Virus record (IMG/VR): IMGVR_UViG_2740892036_000008
Origin: a virus
Taxonomy: Duplodnaviria > Heunggongvirae > Uroviricota > Caudoviricetes
Direction: 5' to 3' (one strand)
Length of the DNA stretch: 9,196 bases
How positions within the stretch are numbered: the first letter of the stretch is position 1; each line of letters begins with the position of its first letter. Below, piece after piece: positions 1 to 9,196 of the stretch. Below the pieces are notes generated by a model. It worked only from the letters and a program-made list of their open reading frames with translations, was not told the origin of the DNA and ran no database searches. Position numbers and translations under genes: made by a program.

Positions 1-378
1 CTAACATGCGCCGCTTTTTTTAACCCTTCGCAGATCCCGCCTTGCTTGCATTGAAACGGCTCTCGCTAATCTCAGCTCAAGCCGTGCGATTCTGTCGGCA
101 TGTAGCCCCATGAGTCCGTTAATCAATGTCATCTCGCGCCATTCTTCTGTTCCCGGCGTCGGATTATTCGCCAGTAATAGCCCGTATCTCTCAGCCAGCA
201 TGAGGTTTCTTGCACGATTTCGCACCAGCGGAGAAAGCGCCTCTCCCCCCTCAAATGGGAAGAATGCCCGCCGACTGCGTTCGCCATGTTTGACGGCATT
301 AGTATTGCCCAATGGTGCGCCTGCGCCTTTCCGCTTGCCACCCCATCCCGATCTTGATTGTTGGCTATTTTTTTTCAT
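1..378 (-). CDS. hypothetical basic protein (125 aa); possible DNA-binding or packaging-associated function
   Basis: Complete ORF with ATG at 378-376 and TAG at 3-1, weak SD-like GTGAG about 8 nt upstream. Very basic N-terminus (SRSGWGGKRKGAGAPLGNTNAVKHG) and arginine-rich C-terminus. Same orientation as the rest of the module. Function not recognised with confidence. Confidence 0.55.
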   Translation of the reverse strand: MKKNSQQSRSGWGGKRKGAGAPLGNTNAVKHGERSRRAFFPFEGGEALSPLVRNRARNLMLAERYGLLLANNPTPGTEEWREMTLINGLMGLHADRIARLELRLARAVSMQARRDLRRVKKSGAC

Positions 379-379
379 T

Positions 380-782
380 TAACGGCTCACTGTGCGCATT
401 TTTGTGCGCAAAAACCTTAACAAACCCTAACAATACCTTAATAAAACTGTATATCTAACTTCCGCCATCTACTGCGAACTGATAGCGCCCAAGCCAGAAA
501 TATCAAGCCTCTCCACCATTTTGCGAATGCGCAATTCGCGCTTACAAATTACTGCGAATTCGCAATTTCTGTACGCAATGCCACCGTTAGCATTTGTCAG
601 GTAGTACGCACGTTGAATACGCAGTTTTGCTGCGCACTGCGTACCAGTGGAACGAACCAGATATTTAGGACGTCCTGAATCACGATTTGGCTTCCAGCCC
701 GCTACTGGCGCGGGTCTGGCGCTGCTAGGGTTTTAAATCCGTACTAAACAGTACTAAATTTTCCGCCGTTTGGGTGCGAAAC
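380..782. promoter_or_regulatory. ORF-free intergenic region with repeated TACTGCGAA and TGCGCA-core motifs (candidate operator/promoter for the 125-aa gene and termination zone for the ssb operon)
   Basis: No ORF of 60 aa or more on either strand. TGTGCGCA twice (391-398, 404-411); TACTGCGAA three times (470-478, 550-558, 784-792); perfect 12-bp palindrome TGCGAATTCGCA (553-564); 7-bp inverted repeat GTACGCA/TGCGTAC (604-610 / 638-644); tandem GTACTAAA (741-748, 751-758). Confidence 0.35.
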
Positions 783-1094
783 TTACTGCGAACCATCGCC
801 CCCGCTGGTGGTATGCCGTTGCCTCTTGCCGCCATTTAACCGGAAGGCGTTACCGTTCGGTTGCGCTATCCCCATGCGGTGCTGAGTTTCGGTGACAGCT
901 TTATGCAGGTCGCCAAAGTCCTCAACCTTCACGGGCGGGCGCTTCACGTTCTCCAGACACGTTTCACGGCGGCGCTTTATCCATTCCCGATCATCGTCCT
1001 CGGTGCATAACAGCATGACTTCCATCCATCGCGCGGCGGCGCGTCGGTACAGCCCTTTTGCTTCCAGATCCTCAGCTTTGCTGTCGTTTACCAT
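783..1094 (-). CDS. PerC/Pch-like small transcriptional regulator (tentative)
   Basis: ATG at 1094-1092 preceded by GAGGGGGG 5 nt upstream; the ORF-track GTG at 1100 is less likely. N-terminal AEDLEAKGLYRRAAARW resembles the conserved N-terminal motif of PerC-family regulators as I recall it (not searched). Starts 11 nt after the ssb stop, so probably co-transcribed. Confidence 0.45.
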   Translation of the reverse strand: MVNDSKAEDLEAKGLYRRAAARWMEVMLLCTEDDDREWIKRRRETCLENVKRPPVKVEDFGDLHKAVTETQHRMGIAQPNGNAFRLNGGKRQRHTTSGGDGSQ

Positions 1095-1105
1095 GTTCAC
1101 CCCCC

Positions 1106-1567
1106 TCAGAATGGCGTTTCATCGTCGAATGGTGGGCGCTGGTCAAAATCATCAGGGGTGTTATATAGCTCCCATCCCGGCGCGGATTGCGTTTCGTGGC
1201 CCCTGCTGGCTCCACTTGCTTTGACTGACTCGGCCCGCTTCCCGCCGGGGCGTACCGTTCTGGCGCTGATCACGCTGTCGGCTACTACCTGATACCCCTG
1301 CTGTGTACCGCCATCCTTGCCCGCCCACTGATTGACCTGCATCGCTCCGGCAACACTGACTAAATCGCCTTTAACGTGTCCTGCCAGTGCGTCGGCCTGT
1401 TTGCCGAATGCCACCACGCCCAGCCAGAAAGTAACCTCTCCGCCCTCTGCTGCATGGCAAGGCAGTGCCACCGCTAAACGCCCCATTGTCATGCTGCCGC
1501 CGCTGTTTGTCGTTCTGGTCTGGGGATCTGCCACCAGCCGCCCGTAGGCTGATATCTGTGCTGTCAT
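1106..1567 (-). CDS. ssb: single-stranded DNA-binding protein (SSB)
   Basis: 153 aa; ATG at 1567-1565, TGA at 1108-1106. OB-fold-like N-terminal region (GRLVADPQ...FWLGVVAFGK...), low-complexity Gly/Gln-rich linker, and the diagnostic acidic C-terminal tail DFDQRPPFDDETPF (compare E. coli SSB ...DFDDDIPF). Confidence 0.85.
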   Translation of the reverse strand: MTAQISAYGRLVADPQTRTTNSGGSMTMGRLAVALPCHAAEGGEVTFWLGVVAFGKQADALAGHVKGDLVSVAGAMQVNQWAGKDGGTQQGYQVVADSVISARTVRPGGKRAESVKASGASRGHETQSAPGWELYNTPDDFDQRPPFDDETPF

Positions 1568-1667
1568 TTTGCGAATACCTCGAATTATTAGTTTTGCTAA
1601 TGAAGATTGCCCGGCACCGTCTTATTGTGGGACACCTTCGCCAGATTTTTTTGTATATAAACAAAAA

Positions 1668-1933
1668 TAGTGTTGTCTCTGTTGTCTTTGTTGTCTCACG
1701 GCTCTACAGGCCGCGCCACGTCTGGGTTTTGCTGAGACAACATTTGCAATTTCGTGTTGTCTCACCCGGCATAAATGTTGTCTCACTGCCTGCCGGACTA
1801 AAAACACACGTTCGCCCTGTTGTCTCAAAATGGCTAAATGTTGTCTCAATGTTGTCTCAAAAATTAAAATAAAATCCTTATAAATCAATGTAACTTACAA
1901 AATGAGACAACAAAGACAACAGAGACAACACTA
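1668..1933. repeat. iteron cluster: 12 copies of 9-mer TGTTGTCTC bounded by a 31-bp perfect inverted repeat, with AT-rich stretch; candidate replication origin / crr-like site
   Basis: Direct copies at 1671-1679, 1680-1688 (TGTTGTCTT), 1689-1697, 1755-1763, 1776-1784, 1818-1826, 1839-1847, 1850-1858; inverted copies at 1734-1742, 1904-1912, 1913-1921, 1922-1930. 1668-1698 is the exact reverse complement of 1903-1933. Internal direct copies are spaced 21, 42, 21 and 11 bp. 1859-1903 is about 87% A+T. Lies immediately 3' of the primase-helicase gene. Confidence 0.7.
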
Positions 1934-1955
1934 AAACTACGTATGTGAAAAAAGA

Positions 1956-4715
1956 TTATTCTTCTGGCTGGCTGCTTTCCTCATCCATGAAGTTGAGCAC
2001 ATAAACGCGAATTTGCCGCCCTCCTTCCCTTACCCGCCCCTGATAACCTCGCCCGCTCGTTGGTGGTGTTAGCATTCCTGCATTCTTGAGAACTTCGGCA
2101 AACTGCCTGACATTAAAACCCCGTGCGATCTCCTGCTCAAATGTTGCCGGGAAGGTGTAGAAAATTATCGGGTCGCCGTCGTGGTTCCCCTTCTTCCTGT
2201 ACCCGGCTAAATCACGGATGGGTAAATCGCGCGGGTCATAACCCAGCGGCGCGAATCTACTCAGCCCATAGGCATTTAAAAACGCCTCCGTCTGCTCGAT
2301 GATCTGCTGGTGCTCTTTGTTCCCCGTGCCGAACTCTTTCAGCCATGCGTTATAGGTGTGCTGTATCGCATCCCGGCACGTTTGAGCATCCCAGCCAGTA
2401 ACCACGCCACCCAGCAGTAAAGCGGCCTCCAGAATGGCGAACCTCGCCCCTACACGGTGAACCTGTTCCCCATAGTCAGCAGGGATTAGACTTCGCCATC
2501 GGGCTTCACACTCACGAACGGCATCAATCGCCTGCTGCTGGTGGTCTGAAAGCCATCTAATCCACTCCCGCCCGGCAGCGCCATGATGGTGCTGGTAAGC
2601 GTCTTTCAGCGCGTCGGCGTGATCTTTCCCTGTCTGGTGCTCATGAAAGCGCACCGCCTTACTCAGCGGGATATTCAGCAGTCGCACCAGTTGCCCCGCT
2701 TTTGTCTTGCGTCCTGCGGTGGCGATGAACGTTTCTAAATCCATTTCCCCGGTGCTGATTGCCACGGTGCGCCAGCGTTTCAGATCCCGGTTGCCTCCTT
2801 CCTTTGCTCCCTGCAATTTCCCCACGCCGTTAAACAGGGCATAGGCAGACTGAGAAACGCTTATCGGGTCTGCGCCCTGTCCGACTTCATCCAGCGGCAT
2901 CAGCCCGTCATTGTGGGCGGCGGCCTCGTTTATCAGCCCCAGCGCCGTCCCATACCACGTCAGGCGCAAGGCATCAGGGTTGCCGTAAAGACTGCTCGCC
3001 ACGTTCTGCGTGGTTGTTTTCCCGGCGCTCGATTGCTCATAAAAATGAATCCCGAATCCGTCACGATCTGCCACCCCGATTAATGGCGCTGCCAGTGCTG
3101 CGGCGATGCCTGTCATCATCGCGTAGTTGCCGTATGCCAGCCGCGCAACACTGTTAAGCCAGCTTTCAGGCGTTCCTGCTACGGTATACCCGGCAGCGGC
3201 TGAACTGCGCCCGCTGAACAAAACAGGCCGCTGAGGTGTGCCGATGATTTCCCCGTCCGGCATGATGTATGCCCCACACTGCCAGCCTGTAGCATGAGCA
3301 ACGCGCCACAATTCACGCGAGCCGCTTCGCTGTAACCAGTCGGCAAGAATCGCCCGTAGGCTGTTTTTCGTTGTGACGTTGACGCCACCAGCTTTCAGGG
3401 TGCGCCAGCCTTCACGCTCGCCAATATCAGCCAGCGGGATAGCCGCTGTTGTCCGTATGCCTGCACCGAATGCCAGCCATGAGATAATAAGATACTGATC
3501 TTTGTCGTCGCGTCCCGTGCCGATAACCTCCAACGGTGAACATAACCAGCTTTCAGCGTTGATGATCTCCCCGCTTTCCTTGTCCACCTTCGGCGTTACC
3601 CAGAAAACGCCATCTTTTCGGCTCTCAATGTGGGGTTTTAGTGGGTCTTTCTCTGGATGGTCAGTTTTACCGCCCTCAATGGCCTGCAATCGTGGTTTAA
3701 CGGCTTCCCCTTGAATCTGGTACATCGAGTCGTTAAACGCAGCCGTAGCGACTTCCAGCCCGTTTTGCTGGTGGTGGTCGTTCCAGTCGGCTTTGTAGTC
3801 TGTCGGCGGCAGTGCCACCCATCCAGCCACGGACAAGGCGGCTTTCTCTGCGGCCTCCCTGCCTGTATTGGCTTCTCCGTTTTGGTGGTGGTCGTTGTCT
3901 GCGGCGATGATTATTTGTGCCTGTGGATACTTCCGGCGCATCACTTCGGCAACGGGTAGCAGGTTGCCCGCGTCAATTGCTGCCACTGCCAGCGCGTCCG
4001 GGCGCATCAGGTGAACTGAAAGGGCCGTCGCCAGCCCCTCGGCAATTAAAACGCTCTGCGGCGATTCTGGCGCGTTTACGGCGTGATATGCCCCGCGCTT
4101 TGCCGAACCCGTCAGAAGTCGCTTTTCTCCATGCGGTGTAATGGTCTGCGCTGCTGCCACTGCGCCGGATTCATCCACCAGCTCCAGCAATAACGAACCA
4201 TCTGGCATTAGCGGGTAATTAAACCCGGTCAGCCCTTTTGATTGCAGGTACTCAGCTTCGCCCTGTATGGCTCTCTGGCGCATTCCGGCATACAGACGGG
4301 AAAACGTAGCCCGGCGCTGCTCTGCGTCCTCTGCGGCCTTTTTCTGTCGCTCCTGCTCATGCCGCTGGCGGTCTGCGGCTAACTGCGTCTGTCTCTGGCT
4401 GGCAGCGTCTGGTGCTGGTTCTGCGGCCCGGTAATCAATACCCAGCACATCAGCGGCAAGGTGCGCCGCCTCCGTGGTGTCGCAGTTGTTAACCCGTTTG
4501 ATTAAATCCAGCCCATCGCCCGCGCCGCACTGATTGCAGATAAAGCTACCTCGCCCGTTGTCGTCGAATCTGAAACGGTCTTTCCCACCACATGCAGGGC
4601 AGGGGGCATGACGGCGCGATGAATCAGGAACGTCGATAGACAGGCCAGCCAGCACATAAGGCCATTTACCAGCGGCGGCGCTGGTCACTTCGCGGATAAT
4701 GTCGATATTACGCAT
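1956..4715 (-). CDS. primase-helicase, P4 alpha-like (zinc-ribbon primase + Toprim + P-loop helicase)
   Basis: 919 aa; ATG at 4715-4713 preceded by AGGGAGG 8 nt upstream; TAA at 1958-1956. N-terminal zinc ribbon CPACGGKDRFRFDDNGRGSFICNQCGAGDG; Toprim-like acidic motif IIIAADNDHHQNGEANTGREAAEKAA; Walker A EQSSAGKTT in the C-terminal half. Confidence 0.9.
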   Translation of the reverse strand: MRNIDIIREVTSAAAGKWPYVLAGLSIDVPDSSRRHAPCPACGGKDRFRFDDNGRGSFICNQCGAGDGLDLIKRVNNCDTTEAAHLAADVLGIDYRAAEPAPDAASQRQTQLAADRQRHEQERQKKAAEDAEQRRATFSRLYAGMRQRAIQGEAEYLQSKGLTGFNYPLMPDGSLLLELVDESGAVAAAQTITPHGEKRLLTGSAKRGAYHAVNAPESPQSVLIAEGLATALSVHLMRPDALAVAAIDAGNLLPVAEVMRRKYPQAQIIIAADNDHHQNGEANTGREAAEKAALSVAGWVALPPTDYKADWNDHHQQNGLEVATAAFNDSMYQIQGEAVKPRLQAIEGGKTDHPEKDPLKPHIESRKDGVFWVTPKVDKESGEIINAESWLCSPLEVIGTGRDDKDQYLIISWLAFGAGIRTTAAIPLADIGEREGWRTLKAGGVNVTTKNSLRAILADWLQRSGSRELWRVAHATGWQCGAYIMPDGEIIGTPQRPVLFSGRSSAAAGYTVAGTPESWLNSVARLAYGNYAMMTGIAAALAAPLIGVADRDGFGIHFYEQSSAGKTTTQNVASSLYGNPDALRLTWYGTALGLINEAAAHNDGLMPLDEVGQGADPISVSQSAYALFNGVGKLQGAKEGGNRDLKRWRTVAISTGEMDLETFIATAGRKTKAGQLVRLLNIPLSKAVRFHEHQTGKDHADALKDAYQHHHGAAGREWIRWLSDHQQQAIDAVRECEARWRSLIPADYGEQVHRVGARFAILEAALLLGGVVTGWDAQTCRDAIQHTYNAWLKEFGTGNKEHQQIIEQTEAFLNAYGLSRFAPLGYDPRDLPIRDLAGYRKKGNHDGDPIIFYTFPATFEQEIARGFNVRQFAEVLKNAGMLTPPTSGRGYQGRVREGGRQIRVYVLNFMDEESSQPEE

Positions 4716-4729
4716 TCGTATTACCTCCC

Positions 4730-5356
4730 TCAGTGCGCCGCTGGCATTTCAGGCAAGCCGTTTTCATTCAGATCAGCAATGAATCCATCATGCAGCTCTG
4801 CCAGCGTTTCACGTCCGAACGGGGTCAGCTCGCCGCGCTCCGTGTCGATCATGGCCTGATAAAAAACAATGGCGTTCGCCGTTCCCTGCTCAATGCCGTA
4901 GCGCTCAATCATTGCGCCCTCGATGTTATTCGCCATCGCCAGACGTTCCGCGAACGGGTAAACCACAATCCCCGCCGTGCCATTGGAGTAAATCGCTACT
5001 TTTGACGTTGTGCCGTCAGCCTCCGTGACGGTGGTTGTGCCGTTTTCGCGCTTCATCTCAGAAATGAACGTGGTAGCAATCAGCCAGCGCCACATAGTGA
5101 CGTTATGCTGCGCGGTAAAGTCGAACCAGCCACGCGCCCCGCCATCAGCAACGGCAAAATGTATGGCGTATCCGATATTTGGCGTATCGTCGTACTCTCC
5201 GGCATCAAGGCGGTTTACCGCGCTCTCGTAGCTGATAAGAGCAACCTGCTCATATCCCCCGGCATCATTGCGGGTCATGATATTGACGCCGTGCGGTGTG
5301 GCTTCGGCGTGTAATAAGTCGGCATTTCCCGATTTAATGGTCGGTGCGTTGCTCAT
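4730..5356 (-). CDS. hypothetical protein (208 aa)
   Basis: ATG at 5356-5354 with GGAGGG 6 nt upstream; start overlaps the stop of the upstream 87-aa ORF (ATGA); TGA at 4732-4730 sits inside the primase SD region. No family recognised. Confidence 0.6.
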   Translation of the reverse strand: MSNAPTIKSGNADLLHAEATPHGVNIMTRNDAGGYEQVALISYESAVNRLDAGEYDDTPNIGYAIHFAVADGGARGWFDFTAQHNVTMWRWLIATTFISEMKRENGTTTVTEADGTTSKVAIYSNGTAGIVVYPFAERLAMANNIEGAMIERYGIEQGTANAIVFYQAMIDTERGELTPFGRETLAELHDGFIADLNENGLPEMPAAH

Positions 5357-5616
5357 GCGCTGCCCTCCGCATCAATTCTGGCTATATCGACAATCGTCAG
5401 GACTTTACTCAGCCAGCAATACGCGATGGCTGCTTGCTCAACTTCGAGGAGTGGTAATAAATCGGTCATAACGTGAGCCAGCCCATTGCGGGCGCGGGTC
5501 ATGCGTTCTGCTGTTCGGTCTGCCAGCGTAAAATCATCCGGGTATGATTCTTTGCGAGATAGCATCGCTTCGGCTTCCAGCTCTGCCGGGTGGCGGTAGA
5601 TGGTATTTATGTTCAT
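5353..5616 (-). CDS. hypothetical protein (87 aa)
   Basis: ATG at 5616-5614 with GAGGTGG upstream; ATGA start/stop overlaps with both neighbours. No family recognised. Confidence 0.55.
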   Translation of the reverse strand: MNINTIYRHPAELEAEAMLSRKESYPDDFTLADRTAERMTRARNGLAHVMTDLLPLLEVEQAAIAYCWLSKVLTIVDIARIDAEGSA

Positions 5617-5792
5617 GCTGCCACCTCACGAATGCGGGTAATCTGGATGTGGGAAAGGCGTTCATTTCTGGCCTGATTTAGCGCCTCAGCTTTGGCGCTG
5701 ATCGCGCTGCGGGCGTCAACGATATAAACGAACTCGACTAATTCGCCGCTCCGGGCGGTGGCGCATCCTGCAACACGGAAGTAATTAAGCAT
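5613..5792 (-). CDS. hypothetical small protein (59 aa from ATG; 69 aa if the TTG at 5822 is used)
   Basis: ATG at 5792-5790 preceded by AGGGGG 5 nt upstream; overlaps the Icd-like stop by 8 nt. The ORF-track start at 5822 is TTG and lies inside the Icd-like CDS, so the ATG is preferred. Confidence 0.45.
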   Translation of the reverse strand: MLNYFRVAGCATARSGELVEFVYIVDARSAISAKAEALNQARNERLSHIQITRIREVAA

Positions 5793-5976
5793 GTGCGCCC
5801 CCTGTGCGAATACGTCCGGCAAAAAAGCAAACGTGATCCCGCGCCAGAATGCGGCGGGCTTCCTGCTCAGTTTCTGCGGCGATATGGTGAATTTTGGCGG
5901 TAATTGTCGGCATGTCGCGGCGAACGGCTGCGATTAACCAGATAAATTGTGGATTTTGGGTAGGGGTAGTAGCCAT
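5785..5976 (-). CDS. Icd-like host cell-division inhibitor family small protein (63 aa)
   Basis: ATG at 5976-5974 with GAGG 8 nt upstream; TAA at 5787-5785. Sequence MATTPTQNPQFIWLIAAVRRD...FAGRIRTGGAHA resembles the short Icd-like proteins found ahead of primase genes in P4-like elements (from memory). Only the C-terminal 63 codons of the 257-aa ORF in the track are taken as coding. Confidence 0.6.
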   Translation of the reverse strand: MATTPTQNPQFIWLIAAVRRDMPTITAKIHHIAAETEQEARRILARDHVCFFAGRIRTGGAHA

Positions 5977-6496
5977 GATGGCAGCCTCTATACAGTGAAT
6001 TTTGAATTCACCACCAAGAGACGCCAATCTCAGACTGGTGGTGAGCTGAACAAGGTTGGCGTAACCGGCCTGTATAGACACCGGCCTTCCTTTCGGAAGC
6101 CTCATCCAGCCCACCATAATTTGGGTGCGCAGGAATTTTGCCGACAAAAAAACACGCTTAGTGCGTGTCGGCACTATACAGGTTATCGGGACGCCAATCC
6201 CGGCACCTGATTTTGCAGGTGCGCTATAACCATAAACCGGGTTGGCGATAGTCGGCAAGCCCTTTTTTATGGACTCGCAAAACTCACCTTCGCGCGTGCG
6301 CGTACTGGTCGCAAAACTCGAAAAAAACTTAGGATTTATTAGGATTCGCAGCCCAATTCTCAGCCCAGAAAACGCCTCTAAAATGTCGTCATTTGTCGCA
6401 ACGGCGCGGCGATGAATGTCAGGTTTTGACAGGTTGTAAGGGTTAACATTTGTTAACAGGCTAGCCAGATTAAAGGCTTCTTTCTGGGCGGCAGGT
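5977..6496 (-). ncRNA. candidate structured leader / immunity-type antisense RNA region (C4/CI-like, boundaries unknown)
   Basis: 520 bp with no convincing ORF start on the transcribed strand. 9-bp perfect inverted repeat TCACCACCA/TGGTGGTGA (6008-6016 / 6036-6044, 19-nt loop); minus-strand hairpin CUUCC-GAAA-GGAAG (6086-6099); terminator-like hairpin at 6140-6172; tandem TTAGGATT (6329-6336, 6339-6346); paired GTTAAC palindromes (6442-6447, 6452-6457). Position ahead of an icd-like gene matches P1 immI (c4-icd-ant) and the P4 CI RNA leader. Confidence 0.3.
6140..6172 (-). terminator. intrinsic-terminator-like hairpin with U-tract inside the leader
   Basis: On the minus strand: stem ACACGC/GCGUGU (6163-6168 pairs with 6152-6157), 5-nt loop, followed by six U (forward A-run 6146-6151); flanked by a further inverted repeat GCCGAC/GTCGGC (6140-6145 / 6167-6172). 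About 170 nt upstream of the Icd-like start. Confidence 0.4.
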
Positions 6497-6679
6497 TCAT
6501 TCAGTATCACGGCGCACCTCCACGAACTCCTTAACGAATCTCTCCAAAGGCTGAACACATGGCGACTGATAGCCCTCGCGGTAAAAGGTCACTCGGTTAT
6601 GCTCGACGCGCTGTACGGTCACTACAGCCCCGTGCGAATCCTTGTAACGGCTTCCCGGCATCGGATTATGGTTACGCAT
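6497..6679 (-). CDS. small protein (60 aa), DUF4222-like (tentative)
   Basis: ATG at 6679-6677 with GGAGG 6 nt upstream; overlaps the antirepressor stop by 8 nt; TGA at 6499-6497. Pattern YKDSHGAVVTVQRVEHNRVTFYREGY resembles small prophage DUF4222 proteins as I recall them (not searched). Confidence 0.5.
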   Translation of the reverse strand: MRNHNPMPGSRYKDSHGAVVTVQRVEHNRVTFYREGYQSPCVQPLERFVKEFVEVRRDTE

Positions 6680-7505
6680 GGTTTACCTCCAGACGTTTAG
6701 CGAGCCAGCGTTGCGACAGGCGGGTGAGTTCTCCTTTGCGCTGCTCATATTCCATGCCCATATCAATTAACGTGATATTGGTGCTTTCGAGATATGAGAG
6801 GTGCTCAAGCTGTTCTGCGTTCATATGGTCGCGAGGTTCGCCAGAATAGCCATTTATCCGCGCCCACTGCTTAGCAGTTAGCCCACCAAGAACGATACGA
6901 GAAATCATATTGCTCTCGTTTGTGTAGTGGTGTTGCTGCGTCGTTTTACCCATCTCGGCACGGGCCATATTCAGCGCATCGCACATCGGCTTAAAGTTGT
7001 TTGCGGCACTGATACGGGCTTTTAGCTGGCGACGATAGCGGGCGGCGATTTCAGGCACGCTACGCTGTAATTCTTCCTCGCACTGGATGAAATAACGGCG
7101 GATAGCGCGGCCCTGTTCGGTGCGTTCGATCATTGCCAGTTCTTTCGCCATTCCGACACTTAACAGATAGTCTTTGCCGGGTCTGCCAGAGTGCTTAATC
7201 TTGCTGTAAGCCGCGCCATTCGGGCTTTTCCCCAAATTTGGGGAAATAGTTTTATGGACTGAGTAATCGTGCCCAATGGTGAAGTCATATTCAGAGATGC
7301 GATCAGTGATCCATGTAGAGAAGTCTTTTCCCACGCCCAACGCTTTGTGTAACGCTTTTGCGCTAACAATATTGGTTTCACGCCCACCGATATGACCAGG
7401 AATAACCGGGACAATTGCGGCAAATTCATTACCGTTAATTGTGCCCTGATAGGCGTTCAGATGAGGGGCGGCCTCAGAAATTAATCTGCTTTTTTCGATG
7501 TTCAT
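6672..7505 (-). CDS. phage antirepressor-like protein (Bro-N / KilAC-type domains, tentative)
   Basis: 277 aa; ATG at 7505-7503 with GGAG upstream; TAA at 6674-6672. Central motif DYLLSVGMAKELAMIERTEQGRAIRRYFIQCEEEL is characteristic of phage antirepressor (Ant/KilAC-type) proteins; N-terminal segment IVSAKALHKALGVGKDFSTWITDRI is compatible with a Bro-N/KilA-N-like fold. Confidence 0.65.
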   Translation of the reverse strand: MNIEKSRLISEAAPHLNAYQGTINGNEFAAIVPVIPGHIGGRETNIVSAKALHKALGVGKDFSTWITDRISEYDFTIGHDYSVHKTISPNLGKSPNGAAYSKIKHSGRPGKDYLLSVGMAKELAMIERTEQGRAIRRYFIQCEEELQRSVPEIAARYRRQLKARISAANNFKPMCDALNMARAEMGKTTQQHHYTNESNMISRIVLGGLTAKQWARINGYSGEPRDHMNAEQLEHLSYLESTNITLIDMGMEYEQRKGELTRLSQRWLAKRLEVNHA

Positions 7506-7517
7506 TTTCAGTCTCCG

Positions 7518-7952
7518 TTAGGCGGCGGTGAGATTGTCCGGGTATAGATTGAGAATGTCGGCAATTTCAGGCTGAGAAAGTCCCTGATAGCCCCCAGCGT
7601 CGGCGTTATGGTTCACAAGCCGAATAACTTTTAGAACGTCACCGCGCCCGGTAAAGCGATAGCGTAAATGTGACCCGATCCCGTCGGGATTCTTTTCGTC
7701 GATACGCTCTAACTGAATATCAAGCCTGCGTTCTAACTCGCTGGCGTAGTTCCTTCCAGACGAAAGGCGGCAGTAGCGCAGAATGTCGTTTTCTGTCCAT
7801 CCCTCTACCCCAGTGCGTAGCATATAGACGCGGGCGCGGTGCTTCTTCGGTGTGCGGCGTGGCGCTTGTGTGGTGGGCGCTGGTGGCGTAACATCAGATC
7901 CGCGAATATCTATGTTAGCCGCCTGCTGTCCGGGGCGGTTTTCTTTTTTCAT
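7518..7952 (-). CDS. hypothetical protein (144 aa), basic Pro/Thr-rich N-terminus
   Basis: ATG at 7952-7950 overlaps the AlpA stop (ATGA); AAGGTGG upstream; TAA at 7520-7518, 12 nt before the antirepressor start. No family recognised. Confidence 0.6.
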   Translation of the reverse strand: MKKENRPGQQAANIDIRGSDVTPPAPTTQAPRRTPKKHRARVYMLRTGVEGWTENDILRYCRLSSGRNYASELERRLDIQLERIDEKNPDGIGSHLRYRFTGRGDVLKVIRLVNHNADAGGYQGLSQPEIADILNLYPDNLTAA

Positions 7953-8170
7953 CAGGCCACCTTCCCGCGACGCTCTGCCAGCCAGTTGTTAATCTCTACC
8001 GCATCAAAGGCGGTAATCTTCTCGCCCAGCTTTACCGGGCGCGGCAGAACCCCATTGCGAACTTTGCGATCAATGGTGGAAACGCTAACGCCCAGCAATT
8101 CAGCAAGGCGGAAGCGTCGGATATAGCCAGATTGGGGGATTGTGTGGGTTGTTGCGTTATGTGTTGCCAT
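7952..8170 (-). CDS. alpA: AlpA-family phage transcriptional regulator (HTH, Vis/AlpA-like)
   Basis: 72 aa; ATG at 8170-8168. Sequence RRFRLAELLGVSVSTIDRKVRNGVLPRPVKLGEKITAFDAVEINNWLAERR matches the AlpA/Vis helix-turn-helix pattern. First gene of a tightly packed co-directional gene string. Confidence 0.8.
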   Translation of the reverse strand: MATHNATTHTIPQSGYIRRFRLAELLGVSVSTIDRKVRNGVLPRPVKLGEKITAFDAVEINNWLAERRGKVA

Positions 8171-8262
8171 ATGTCCCGTAACCTCTTTTGATGGTTGTTG
8201 CTTCGTTACGGGTATGATGGGAGCAATAGATTGTAATGTATCGGAATTATTAGAAAACTCCC

Positions 8263-8281
8263 CGGAATTTTCATAATTCCG
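8263..8281 (-). terminator. possible weak terminator hairpin immediately after the cargo gene stop
   Basis: On the minus strand: CGGAAUU-AUGAA-AAUUCCG (7-bp stem, 5-nt loop) directly 3' of the stop codon at 8284-8282, with UUUU a few nt further on. AU-rich stem, so weak. Confidence 0.25.
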
Positions 8282-9196
8282 TTATCGGTTGACTCCCCCT
8301 TTTCGCAGCCAATCTATAAGCGTCTTATCATCATCCGGGAGTGGTAGCTCCTCACCTTTATTGTTAGCTTTATTTCTCAGTTGTGTAATGCTGCCTTTTA
8401 AATCACTATCGGTTAAGCCTATACGTTTAAGTAATGCGACAATTAGTCTCATCTGTTTTTCTGTTGTTTTTACTGGTTTTCCTACATTCATTTCCGTCGG
8501 CGGTAAGGGAATAACACCTCCGTTAATCATGCTTTTAATCGGCTCGCCTGTGTCTATTGCGTCTTTGAGTTTTAAAATGGTATCTCTGGCAATAAATAGA
8601 TCGGAAGTTGTCAAAGTCTCATTAAGCGCAGGTTTTCGGCTCTCACTTAACTGAAACCCTATGCTTTCGGCTAGTTGTCTGTTTAGCGTAGGTAGCCAGC
8701 TCTGATTAAAATATCTATCGCTAATTATCTGACACGAAAGGCCAGTCTTCTCGCGGAAAGTGTCCCATCCGAACGGCCTGAAAATTGTCGTGTCTATCAC
8801 CCTTGCCCTCTTAGAATAAAGAAGACTTTCTATTTCACTGTGTCCCAGACACCATAGCCCGTTCGCCAATCCTCTAAATAAAATAAGCCCACTATCTGTT
8901 TTGTATGCGTCATGTTCGGTGAGCGTGGAATTAAAATGAGATATATAGTTGCCCTCACGAAAAAGAAATGATGAGTTTCCTTTGTGTTCGTGATAAAACT
9001 CAATTGGGTCTTTTATATCTTTACCGCCTATAAAAGCCAAAGTAGAAGAAAATCCTCTCATCATTATACACAACGGTATAGCCCCAATAACTCCATAGTG
9101 AAGTAAATCATCTGTATCGCATTGCAGGTGATGCTGCCAACTTACTGATTTAGTGTATGATGGTGTTTTTGAGGTGCTCCAGTGGCTTCTGTTTCT
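8282..9196 (-). CDS. hypothetical cargo protein, AT-rich, 5' end probably outside the window
   Basis: TAA at 8284-8282. ORF-track start is TTG at 9073 (ATG at 9064 and 9061), but the same frame stays open with no stop up to the window edge at 9196, so the true start may lie beyond the window. Region 8220-9196 is visibly lower in G+C (about 40%) than the rest (about 55%), with different codon usage. No family recognised. Confidence 0.5.
   Translation of the reverse strand, partial: RNRSHWSTSKTPSYTKSVSWQHHLQCDTDDLLHYGVIGAIPLCIMMRGFSSTLAFIGGKDIKDPIEFYHEHKGNSSFLFREGNYISHFNSTLTEHDAYKTDSGLILFRGLANGLWCLGHSEIESLLYSKRARVIDTTIFRPFGWDTFREKTGLSCQIISDRYFNQSWLPTLNRQLAESIGFQLSESRKPALNETLTTSDLFIARDTILKLKDAIDTGEPIKSMINGGVIPLPPTEMNVGKPVKTTEKQMRLIVALLKRIGLTDSDLKGSITQLRNKANNKGEELPLPDDDKTLIDWLRKGGVNR

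Follow-up and report, generated by a model that had tools for sequence, protein, structure and literature searches.

The window, by which we mean the whole stretch of 9,196 nucleotides that was analysed, holds at its right-hand end alpA, an intergenic region with two symmetrical elements, the 3' part of a long gene on the same strand, and a fragment of an insertion sequence. The long gene is called the slot gene here, after the variable position that it occupies between the integrase gene (int) and alpA in related islands. The features are as follows.

7952-8170, minus strand: alpA, 72 aa, matching Pfam Phage_AlpA (5.6e-08) and HTH_17; directly downstream of the slot gene
8175-8212, minus strand: alpA leader hairpin, CCCGUAAC-N22-GUUACGGG; the 3' arm directly adjoins the Shine-Dalgarno sequence and stops 4 nt short of the alpA start codon
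8242-8281, minus strand: four alternating half-sites, found as repeats, right after the slot-gene stop; a candidate operator or two tandem terminator hairpins
8282-9126, minus strand: slot gene minus its 5' end, which IS1 has cut off; 2 nt of codon 27, all of codons 28-307 and the stop remain; from the ORF, its translation and allele comparison
8285-8461, minus strand: C-terminal type-A cassette (residues 249-307), four compact helices; motif KQxxxIVxLLK...GSIxxLRxK...DDKTLxDWLRKGG
8462-8539, minus strand: low-confidence linker (residues 223-248, pLDDT 30-46), at which cassettes are swapped
8540-9025, minus strand: middle alpha/beta domain (residues 61-222), hypervariable; the exceptions are a GLW motif (G116, W118) and a DLxITRxQxEKI helix
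9026-9126, minus strand: remnant of the N-terminal winged helix-turn-helix (wHTH; residues 27-60), its opening strand and the greater part of helix 1 (residues 17-26) displaced by IS1
9127-9196, no strand assigned: terminal 70 nt of IS1, inserted in slot-gene codon 27; the remainder of the IS lies outside the window

The slot gene, its IS1 junction and its intact copies

A reading of the letters alone (the sequence-only reading) had singled out the last kilobase of the window for its drop in G+C and for a long minus-strand ORF upstream of alpA, and both observations hold. The G+C content of positions 8282-9126 is 0.406 and their GC3 0.363 (54% for comparison), while the other genes of the window all lie between 0.50 and 0.60, and G+C is at least 0.465 in every 845-nt stretch of positions 1-8170. 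The stop codon of the ORF is at 8282-8284, 111 bp upstream of alpA. That the frame stays open to the window edge is formally correct; the true frame, however, is broken in codon 27. The last 70 nt are identical to the end of IS1: they match IS1A/IS1B ends in 4,963 of the 5,426 E. coli genomes, where IS1 transposases are annotated at the matching places. The apparent open frame at the edge is therefore an artefact. Positions 8282-9126 are 100% identical, up to position 9126, to uninterrupted alleles in 33 complete E. coli genomes, and these empty-site alleles part from the window sequence exactly at 9126/9127. E. coli D5 (NZ_CP010145) and STN0717-20 (NZ_AP022482) are carriers of an intact allele.

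The intact alleles also supplied the rightward extension that had been proposed as a check, and they revise two of the original statements. Where "263 aa or more" had been given, the intact gene has 79 more bases and encodes 307 aa (WP_016244009.1, annotated as "hypothetical protein"; 12183-13106 in locus L001). Where the gene had been placed at the edge of the element, intact copies have a 419-aa tyrosine integrase and then yicC beyond it, so that the order in L001 is yicC, integrase, slot gene, alpA. Neither complete E. coli genomes nor metagenome contigs contain the exact IS1 junction, and the broken copy sits in an island that is otherwise 100% identical to the intact islands. From these comparisons we conclude with high confidence that the window holds an IS1-truncated remnant of the 307-aa gene of a PICI-type satellite integrated beside yicC. 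It is a non-functional pseudogene, since the 79 nt nearest the promoter are lost to IS1, together with part of the predicted DNA-binding domain. Given this inactivation, cloning from this strain "with native flank", as had been suggested, would amount to testing a pseudogene. The message of the window itself is thus a modest one, of a pseudogene in which IS1 passes for an open frame. Insertion sequences have entered related islands too, IS903B in antA (L002) and IS1 in int (L005).

The surrounding element has the gene content of a PICI-type satellite: alpA and a TOPRIM/DUF927 primase gene are co-oriented in the window, int adjoins yicC in L001, and the remaining genes of the L001 island serve regulation or replication, neither a large terminase nor portal or tail genes being among them. 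An RNA immunity module, C4/isrK, is also present. AlpA is the satellite activator in E. coli PICIs; in EcCICFT073 alpA is helper-inducible and uncontrolled AlpA is harmful, while for Gram-negative PICIs no repressor is known and the route by which helper phages switch on alpA is unknown (PMC6092414).

Modules of the slot protein and its superfamily

The ORF had been described as belonging to no recognisable family, and the full 307-aa protein bears this out: no family was found in Pfam (E<=1), NCBIfam, PADLOC (0 families at E<=1) or PDB sequences, PHROGs gave only a marginal match to phrog_7144, whose function is not known, and a Foldseek search of BFVD returned nothing at E<=0.001. The protein is a member of a superfamily of 411 representative clusters (50% identity; E<=1e-3), mostly 260-340 aa long, whose members match at both ends and diverge in the middle. 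Three modules can be distinguished, namely an N-terminal wHTH of the AlpA/MerR/Xis type, a hypervariable middle and, past a flexible linker, a helical C-terminal cassette that can be exchanged. These assort combinatorially across the superfamily, and in alignment A1 similarity breaks at the linker between cassette types A, B and C.

The predicted fold of the N-terminal domain is the beta-alpha-alpha-beta-beta arrangement of a winged helix, with putative DNA binding; in the full-protein search this domain matched none of Pfam Phage_AlpA, HTH_17 and MerR even at E<=1. It differs from the AlpA/Vis/Xis/MerR winged helices in being fused to ~240 further residues, and the long dimerisation helix of MerR is missing from the predicted structure. 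The protein has no conserved catalytic-looking residues and no enzymatic or effector domain, and its C-terminal cassette has no recognisable DNA-binding fold. Pfam searches with 37 cassettes gave scattered single matches only, including one below threshold to AbiJ_NTD5 (1 of the 37). A cassette profile searched against PDB sequences drew designer PPR proteins, a lead that was discarded as an artefact of summing over repeats, no stretch being individually significant.

The family is large, unnamed and common in E. coli, Salmonella and Klebsiella. Its wHTH is conserved across six genera, its end modules are conserved and its domains are predicted to fold confidently; apart from the allele shared identically by 33 genomes, abundant E. 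coli and Salmonella members occur on at least 1,000 contigs each. The slot occupants of L002, L003 and L005 escaped detection by one profile built from 31 diverse members. Pairwise phmmer comparison joined those of L002, L003, L026 and L027 by shared modules, but not those of L005, L028 and L029, and a profile search of genome contigs with a closer alignment found two loci only.

The slot, alpA and the sequence between them

Comparison of homologous islands confirms that the slot is variable, as had been supposed. Among islands at the yicC site the flanks are 81-99% identical (int 93-97%, alpA 87-96%, the next gene 81-99%), and the slot proteins between them are essentially unrelated, with identities of 2-34% in the N-terminus, 4-24% in the middle and 5-65% in the C-terminus. 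These identity matrices and a census of slots show a hotspot of variation whose neighbours on either side are conserved genes of the mobile element. A superfamily member lies directly upstream of an alpA-type gene, always on the same strand, in 14 of the 14 contexts examined (superfamily contexts: L001, L002, L003/L004, L007, L012, L015, L017, L019, L021, L023, L024, L025, L026, L027 and L032), and the adjacency is kept in L024 and L025, which have no adjacent integrase. Other occupants fall into three small unrelated families (239 aa, 216 aa and DUF6387), likewise AT-rich (GC3 0.37-0.44); DUF6387 matches the L029 occupant only, and the query protein shows no homology to it. The slot is empty in EcCICFT073 and in the thrW islands L006 and L030. 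No known defence system was found in the ~20 slots sampled, one architecture being dominant. A tblastn search with three divergent members against 50,697 phage genomes gave no match, and of the plasmid matches (n=3) the one examined is a circular satellite, which points to a family restricted to satellites.

As judged from sequence comparison, the family is specific to one position, immediately upstream of alpA, and is new to description, corresponding to no described family. The sequence-only reading had proposed foreign anti-phage or accessory cargo. The variable slot and the absence of a described family stand, but the gene belongs to one mosaic superfamily tied to alpA and has no PADLOC match. 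It therefore appears not to be arbitrary foreign cargo, and the siting of a large, shuffled family just upstream of alpA makes it more likely to be a satellite regulator than random cargo. Coupling to a single alpA clade was considered and rejected: the GYIRRFRL clade is enriched (10 of 11), and others occur as well. YfjH, whose gene lies between intA and alpA in CP4-57 of K-12, was considered as a relative and found to be unrelated and on the opposite strand.

The four half-sites that follow the slot-gene stop read, in the alpA sense, CGGAATTAT-G-AAAATTCCG-GG-GAGTTTTCT-A-ATAATTCCG. They take in the inverted repeat at 8263-8281, which had been regarded as the gene's own hairpin. The repeat is real, but it is the first half of this array. 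A role as the gene's own terminator is not supported as such: the RNA hairpin would be weak (z = -1.8), and terminator prediction does not pick it out. The array overlaps a sigma-70-like site, the only one upstream of alpA, with its -35 at 8274-8269 and its -10 at 8251-8246. Its core palindrome, A(A/T)AAYTCC-N1-3-GGARTTTT, follows 10 of 10 type-A cassettes, in six genera and between flanks that are not conserved, and occurs a single time in 25 kb, with 0.14 expected; the conservation of the wHTH and of this downstream motif across six genera points to purifying selection. After other cassette types the array is absent, and ordinary co-varying hairpins are found instead. Closer to alpA, the leader hairpin has a dG of -11.8 kcal/mol (z = -3.3), a stability that none of 200 shuffles reached. 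Of 15 leaders, 10 have an equivalent hairpin built from other arm sequences (z between -3.1 and -6.5), and the AUG itself is sometimes paired. At the other end of the slot gene, the start codon lies 4-8 nt past the int stop in L021 and L032, and in L001 the stretch from int to the slot gene showed no promoter-like site; an operon with int is therefore likely.

Possible roles of the slot protein

The reading that we tentatively prefer, as possible rather than probable, is that the slot protein is coupled to alpA as a sensor or regulator that is modular and binds DNA. The satellite would make it while integrated, probably from a transcript shared with int, and the protein would bind DNA between its own stop codon and alpA, which for type A would mean the half-site array over the promoter-like site. 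Binding there may gate expression of alpA, the master activator of the satellite, and the hypervariable middle domain could serve as the sensor of a phage or cell signal that changes from island to island. In that case the slot protein would correspond, in modular and optional form, to the Stl repressors known from staphylococcal islands.

Stl/Rpr proteins, such as Stl of SaPIbov1, resemble the slot protein in adjoining int in a satellite and in size (in part PMC6092414). Both have an N-terminal HTH-type domain followed by variable, modular domains, sensory and C-terminal in Stl, so that the Stl-class combination of an HTH with variable, putatively sensory domains beside int is found in the slot protein as well; both also show extreme diversity between similar islands and adjoin genes that start the satellite cycle. 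There is, however, no sequence or fold kinship beyond a generic HTH, and whereas stl is divergent from the operon that it regulates, the slot gene is co-directional with alpA in every context. Unlike a regulator of the Stl class, it is also missing from some functional islands, such as EcCICFT073, and the IS1 copy persists. This rules out a universal master repressor: the slot of EcCICFT073 is empty and its alpA is nonetheless helper-inducible, and the slots of L006 and L030 are empty too.

Several further observations weigh against a regulator. As the IS1 copy shows, an island can do without the gene for at least a short time, although in EcCICFT073 AlpA does harm when uncontrolled; three unrelated small families can fill the slot; the gene runs in the direction of alpA, unlike the divergent stl; and C4/isrK RNA immunity is already in the island. 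The cassette lacks a recognisable DNA-binding fold, its link to the motif could be plain physical linkage, and the motif could be tandem terminator hairpins.

It is somewhat less likely that the slot protein is an anti-phage or interference protein of the satellite, with a middle domain that would recognise a phage protein and a DNA-binding domain or cassette that would block replication, transcription or assembly, the island itself being left unregulated. Much of the slot census suits such a role: the slot is a diversity hotspot between near-identical flanks, its occupants are AT-rich (GC3 0.36 for the query), presence varies from empty slots to unrelated occupants, and an IS1 knockout is tolerated. 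The same census shows, against this, that one architecture dominates, that known defence systems are absent from ~20 slots, and that adjacency to alpA holds even without an adjacent int. Module shuffling is typical of arms-race genes, and self-control of the island is already covered by its C4/isrK RNA immunity; the protein, however, has neither a PADLOC match nor an enzymatic or effector domain or conserved catalytic residues.

Two known proteins, BstA and Tai, are what a slot protein of this kind would resemble. BstA is a single-protein abortive-infection system of prophages, ~300 aa long, with an N-terminal DNA-binding domain (KilA-N) and a variable C-terminal part. The slot protein is likewise ~300 aa long, has an N-terminal, putatively DNA-binding domain and belongs to a temperate element, but it lacks KilA-N and a PADLOC match. 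Immune or interference genes of PICIs reportedly occupy accessory regions, at the 5' end in the work of Fillol-Salom and colleagues (Cell, 2022). PICIs can carry immune systems at their 5' or 3' ends, and Tai, a PICI defence gene that adjoins pri, is mostly phage-borne and had no homology to catalogued defence systems before it was tested (PMC11364771). The slot gene, also a single gene without such homology, lies in the int-proximal variable region of a Gram-negative PICI; it differs from Tai in being tied to alpA and in the absence of its family, with three divergent queries, from 50,697 phage genomes, which argues against an anti-phage role. Published satellite-encoded, putatively DNA-binding proteins of the same islands show extensive module shuffling like that of the slot family, which differs from them in lying in the integration zone upstream of alpA and in having no Bro-N, KilA-N or AntA domain. 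The paper on those proteins places nothing but int and alpA in the integration zone. The slot family is a candidate for helper sensing or satellite immunity; were the anti-phage reading true, it would be a satellite-restricted anti-phage protein.

A wider version of the regulatory reading, which we consider unlikely, would make the superfamily the missing helper-phage sensor of many Gram-negative PICIs. It would act as an Stl-like switch, with the wHTH and/or the cassette on the array, middle variants binding different phage proteins and so releasing alpA, and cassette and operator swapped together in an immunity-like manner. If true, this would explain the diversification of helper specificity among islands with near-identical int, alpA and replication genes. 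Natural experiments are at hand in the intact alleles, the IS1 knockout, the empty slots and the cassette swaps in isogenic backbones.

A recombination accessory factor, in which the Xis/AlpA-like domain would bind att-arm DNA or the integrase as a directionality or site-selection factor co-expressed with int, is improbable. The gene does lie directly downstream of int, with a gap of 4-8 nt in some loci, and an unidentified DNA-binding protein has been invoked for the attP motifs of related PICIs (PMC10111431), but integrases that are 93-97% identical pair with unrelated slot proteins, while at other sites members of one family accompany integrases of 30-63% identity, and two contexts have no adjacent integrase. 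An Xis-like function, moreover, is already provided by alpA in this class of elements, and a protein of 300 aa with a hypervariable middle is unlike known RDFs.

Least credible of all is that the gene has no function for the element, being a neutral or selfish AT-rich ORF in a recombination-prone gap, with a decaying pseudogene in the window: the window copy is certainly dead through IS1 in codon 27, IS903B and IS1 have struck antA (L002) and int (L005) of related islands, and empty slots exist, yet the 411 clusters have intact ORFs of 260-340 aa with conserved end modules and confidently folding domains, the identical intact allele recurs in 33 genomes, abundant members stand on at least 1,000 contigs each, and conservation of the wHTH and of the motif behind the gene extends over six genera.

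The slot gene and its interruption

The last kilobase of the window was described, in the sequence-only reading, as a low-G+C segment carrying a long minus-strand ORF just upstream of alpA, the satellite's activator gene, that could be assigned to no family; all three points are borne out. The interval 8282–9126 has a G+C content of 40.6% (GC3 36.3%) versus 50–60% in each of the remaining window genes, and no other 845-nt stretch in 1–8170 falls below 46.5%. The frame was also said to be open at the window edge, which is formally correct but misleading, as the final bases are the end of an insertion sequence.

Features at the right end of the window
7952–8170, minus strand: alpA (Pfam Phage_AlpA, 5.6e-08)
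8175–8212, minus strand: alpA leader hairpin, abutting the alpA Shine–Dalgarno sequence and ending 4 nt before the AUG
8282–9126, minus strand: slot gene ORF, stop codon TAA at 8282–8284, 111 bp upstream of alpA
9127–9196: IS1 end (last 70 bases), matching IS1A/IS1B

The terminal segment matches IS1A/IS1B in 4,963 of 5,426 complete E. coli genomes, and the remainder of the region is found at 100% identity in 33 genomes, ending at 9126. Across the junction at 9126/9127, those 33 genomes read …gcattgca followed by aaatact…, and the window reads …gcattgca followed by ggtgatgctgcc…. Uninterrupted, the gene spans 924 nt, and its 307-aa product is WP_016244009.1, annotated "hypothetical protein". 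The insertion point is codon 27. IS1 cuts the gene off from its initial 79 nt and from any promoter further upstream, and deprives the N-terminal domain of its first strand and most of helix 1; the copy in the window is therefore a pseudogene. In related islands, IS903B splits antA (L002, 2589–3714) and IS1 splits the integrase (L005, 6211–8202); decay through IS insertion seems to be frequent in these satellites.

The gene does not lie at the element's edge, as had been proposed: in intact copies it is followed by a 419-aa tyrosine integrase (Arm-DNA-bind_3, Phage_int_M, and Phage_integrase domains) and then by yicC. Element genes are on the minus strand throughout, in the order int (beyond the window), slot gene, alpA, 144-aa gene, antA, DUF4222, icd-like region, small ORFs, TOPRIM/DUF927 primase, ssb, and perC. 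PMC6092414 and PMC10111431 give the same layout for Gram-negative PICIs, and the second of these papers defines an "integration zone" as int plus alpA. Inside the gene region annotated as an Icd-like protein are three RNA features (together 6034–6235), all above the Rfam gathering score, which constitute a P4/P1-type RNA immunity module:

6034–6121, minus strand: C4 antisense RNA
6147–6222, minus strand: isrK
6183–6235, minus strand: a1/b1 targets of C4

A modular family in a variable slot

The full-length slot protein has no match in Pfam, NCBIfam, PADLOC, or PDB sequences, and matches one PHROG, of unknown function, marginally. At 90% identity its close relatives fall into 51 clusters, all labelled "hypothetical" and restricted to Enterobacterales (Klebsiella, Raoultella, Citrobacter, Enterobacter, Dickeya, Lonsdalea, and E. 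coli). The N-terminal ~232 residues are conserved in their alignment, and the C-terminal ~75 residues fall into three or more unrelated types; one protein from Lonsdalea, only ~30% identical over the N-terminal part, nevertheless has a C-terminus of the query's type, and at high identity. An exhaustive profile search recovered 411 representative clusters (50%-identity level, E ≤ 1e-3), mostly of 260–340 aa, most of which match in residues ~10–60 and ~200–305, with a divergent middle. Over 209 full-length sequences, the "LEYC" N-terminal type occurs with the query's exchangeable C-terminal module (the type-A tail) in 75 and with another tail in 109; the remaining 25 join the type-A tail to another N-terminus. 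The family is shown to be modular, with a winged-helix N-terminus. Only R22, C29, D33, and G116 are invariant across 31 diverse members, whose conserved residues include no catalytic signature. Named members, including E. coli and Salmonella clusters present on at least 1,000 contigs, are all "hypothetical," and the satellite literature covered describes no gene family at the int–alpA position. These proteins form an abundant and clearly structured part of enterobacterial satellites that has gone undescribed, and they merit experiments.

Identity between islands at the yicC site
int: 93–97%
alpA: 87–96%
144-aa gene: 81–99%
Slot protein, N-terminus: 2–34%
Slot protein, middle: 4–24%
Slot protein, C-terminus: 5–65%

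Because the flanking genes are near-identical while the protein between them differs, the int–alpA slot is a true diversity hotspot, and the variability predicted for it holds on homologous islands. Its occupants, however, are mostly of one architecture; no known defence system occurs among about 20 slots sampled. The original observation is, overall, partly confirmed, and its interpretation partly supported. The 272-aa occupant of L002 has a tail common to many superfamily members (P0065, 1.6e-34) and a middle in common with P0150; that of L003 and L027 (293 aa) joins a tail as in P0145, P0103, and P0095 to the N-terminus and middle of P0079, itself bearing the type-A tail; that of L026 joins a LEYC N-terminus to the L002-type tail. 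Three occupants, AT-rich (GC 0.38–0.44) and of unknown function, have no superfamily link:

L005, 5348–6067: 239 aa, SITxQxAxxLAGxxP-like N-terminal motif
L028, 4209–4859: 216 aa, SITxQxAxxLAGxxP-like N-terminal motif
L029, 3827–4708: DUF6387 protein

The slot is empty in two thrW islands (L006 and L030) and in the experimentally characterised EcCICFT073 (int, 365-bp gap, alpA).

Linkage to alpA and the intervening DNA

Adjacency of the family to alpA is strict: all superfamily members with readable context are co-directional with an alpA-type gene and lie immediately upstream of it. This is kept across chromosomal sites (yicC, der/bamB, and others) and genera, and in L032 (NZ_CP033626.1), the 22,859-bp "plasmid unnamed1" of Klebsiella pneumoniae. 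That record is typed as a non-mobilizable plasmid; with its gene order of int, slot gene, alpA, 143-aa gene, antA, DUF4222, and icd, plus a gene for a tape measure protein, it has the look of a satellite that has circularised and captured late genes, not of a plasmid. In L024, which is another type of element, from Salmonella, and also carries a D5-type primase, an XRE/ImmA (Peptidase_M78) pair is followed by superfamily member P0156 and then an AlpA-like ORF. This ORF (4365–4577, "...HVAHYLGVHISTVWRYAKRPDFPKP...") was uncalled, alpA having been overlooked by gene callers; missed alpA calls in other satellites are also reported in PMC10111431. The integrase is not adjacent to the superfamily gene in L024 and L025, and the link to alpA is therefore tighter than that to int. 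Enrichment is seen with one alpA clade (10/11), but family members accompany other clades too.

The hairpin attributed to the slot gene (8263–8281) is present, but it is weak as RNA (z = −1.8), is not called by terminator prediction, and supplies the first pair of half-sites in an alternating array of four (8242–8281; in alpA sense, CGGAATTAT-G-AAAATTCCG-GG-GAGTTTTCT-A-ATAATTCCG). The core palindrome, A(A/T)AAYTCC-N1-3-GGARTTTT, together with a further ATAACTCC, is kept after 10/10 type-A cassettes from six genera; the DNA around it is not conserved, and adjacent coding sequence is down to 35–65% identity. It is single-copy in the 25-kb locus (0.14 matches expected) and overlaps the sole sigma-70-like site upstream of alpA. 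Since the sequence, and not only the pairing, is conserved, and the spacer is too short for an RNA loop, we favour a candidate protein-binding site. Tandem terminator hairpins are a possible alternative, and the array's association with the cassette may be simple linkage; other cassette types have ordinary hairpins downstream, with co-varying stems (GGTACTG/CAGTACC versus GGCACAG/CTGTGCC).

Stable equivalents of the alpA leader hairpin occur in 10/15 alpA leaders (z −3.1 to −6.5), with the start codon paired in some; they include those of L002, L003, L007, L015, L017, L019, L021, L023, and L024, and the hairpin is absent in NC101, CP4-57, and L025. The arms differ in sequence (CCCGUAAC/GUUACGGG, CCUGUCAU/AUGACAGG, GCGAUUACC/GGUAAUCGC, CCCCUGUU/AACAGGGG), and these structures suggest translational control of alpA.

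Possible roles, and other features of the satellite

The slot protein may bind DNA in front of alpA and thereby gate this activator, with its variable middle acting as a sensor; it would then be an optional, modular counterpart of Stl, the master repressor of staphylococcal islands. We offer this tentatively, at somewhat less than even chances: the slot of EcCICFT073 is empty, the IS1 knockout is tolerated, the slot gene is co-directional with alpA, unrelated proteins occupy the slot in other islands, and the island already has an RNA immunity module. An anti-phage or interference protein specific to satellites, the main rival, is somewhat less likely; the hotspot behaviour, the AT-richness of the gene, and immune genes reported at the PICI 5′ end (PMC11364771) speak for it, but the protein has neither an effector nor defence homology, and tblastn of three divergent members against 50,697 phage genomes found no phage-borne relatives. 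A recombination accessory factor is very improbable, because slot type is independent of integrase type.

The AT-rich gap between primase and ssb (1568–1955; 39–41% GC) contains direct repeats of TGTTGTCTC, as iterons at 1671–1697 and 1818–1860, and inverted AGACAACAA copies at 1905–1930. This gap probably serves as the satellite's origin of replication, reported in the literature to lie downstream of pri. At the far island end of the intact-allele locus (L001), two different full-length dinD genes lie side by side (151–975 and 1317–2141; WP_001297374.1 and WP_021548889.1), one of which may be island-borne or the product of the integration event.
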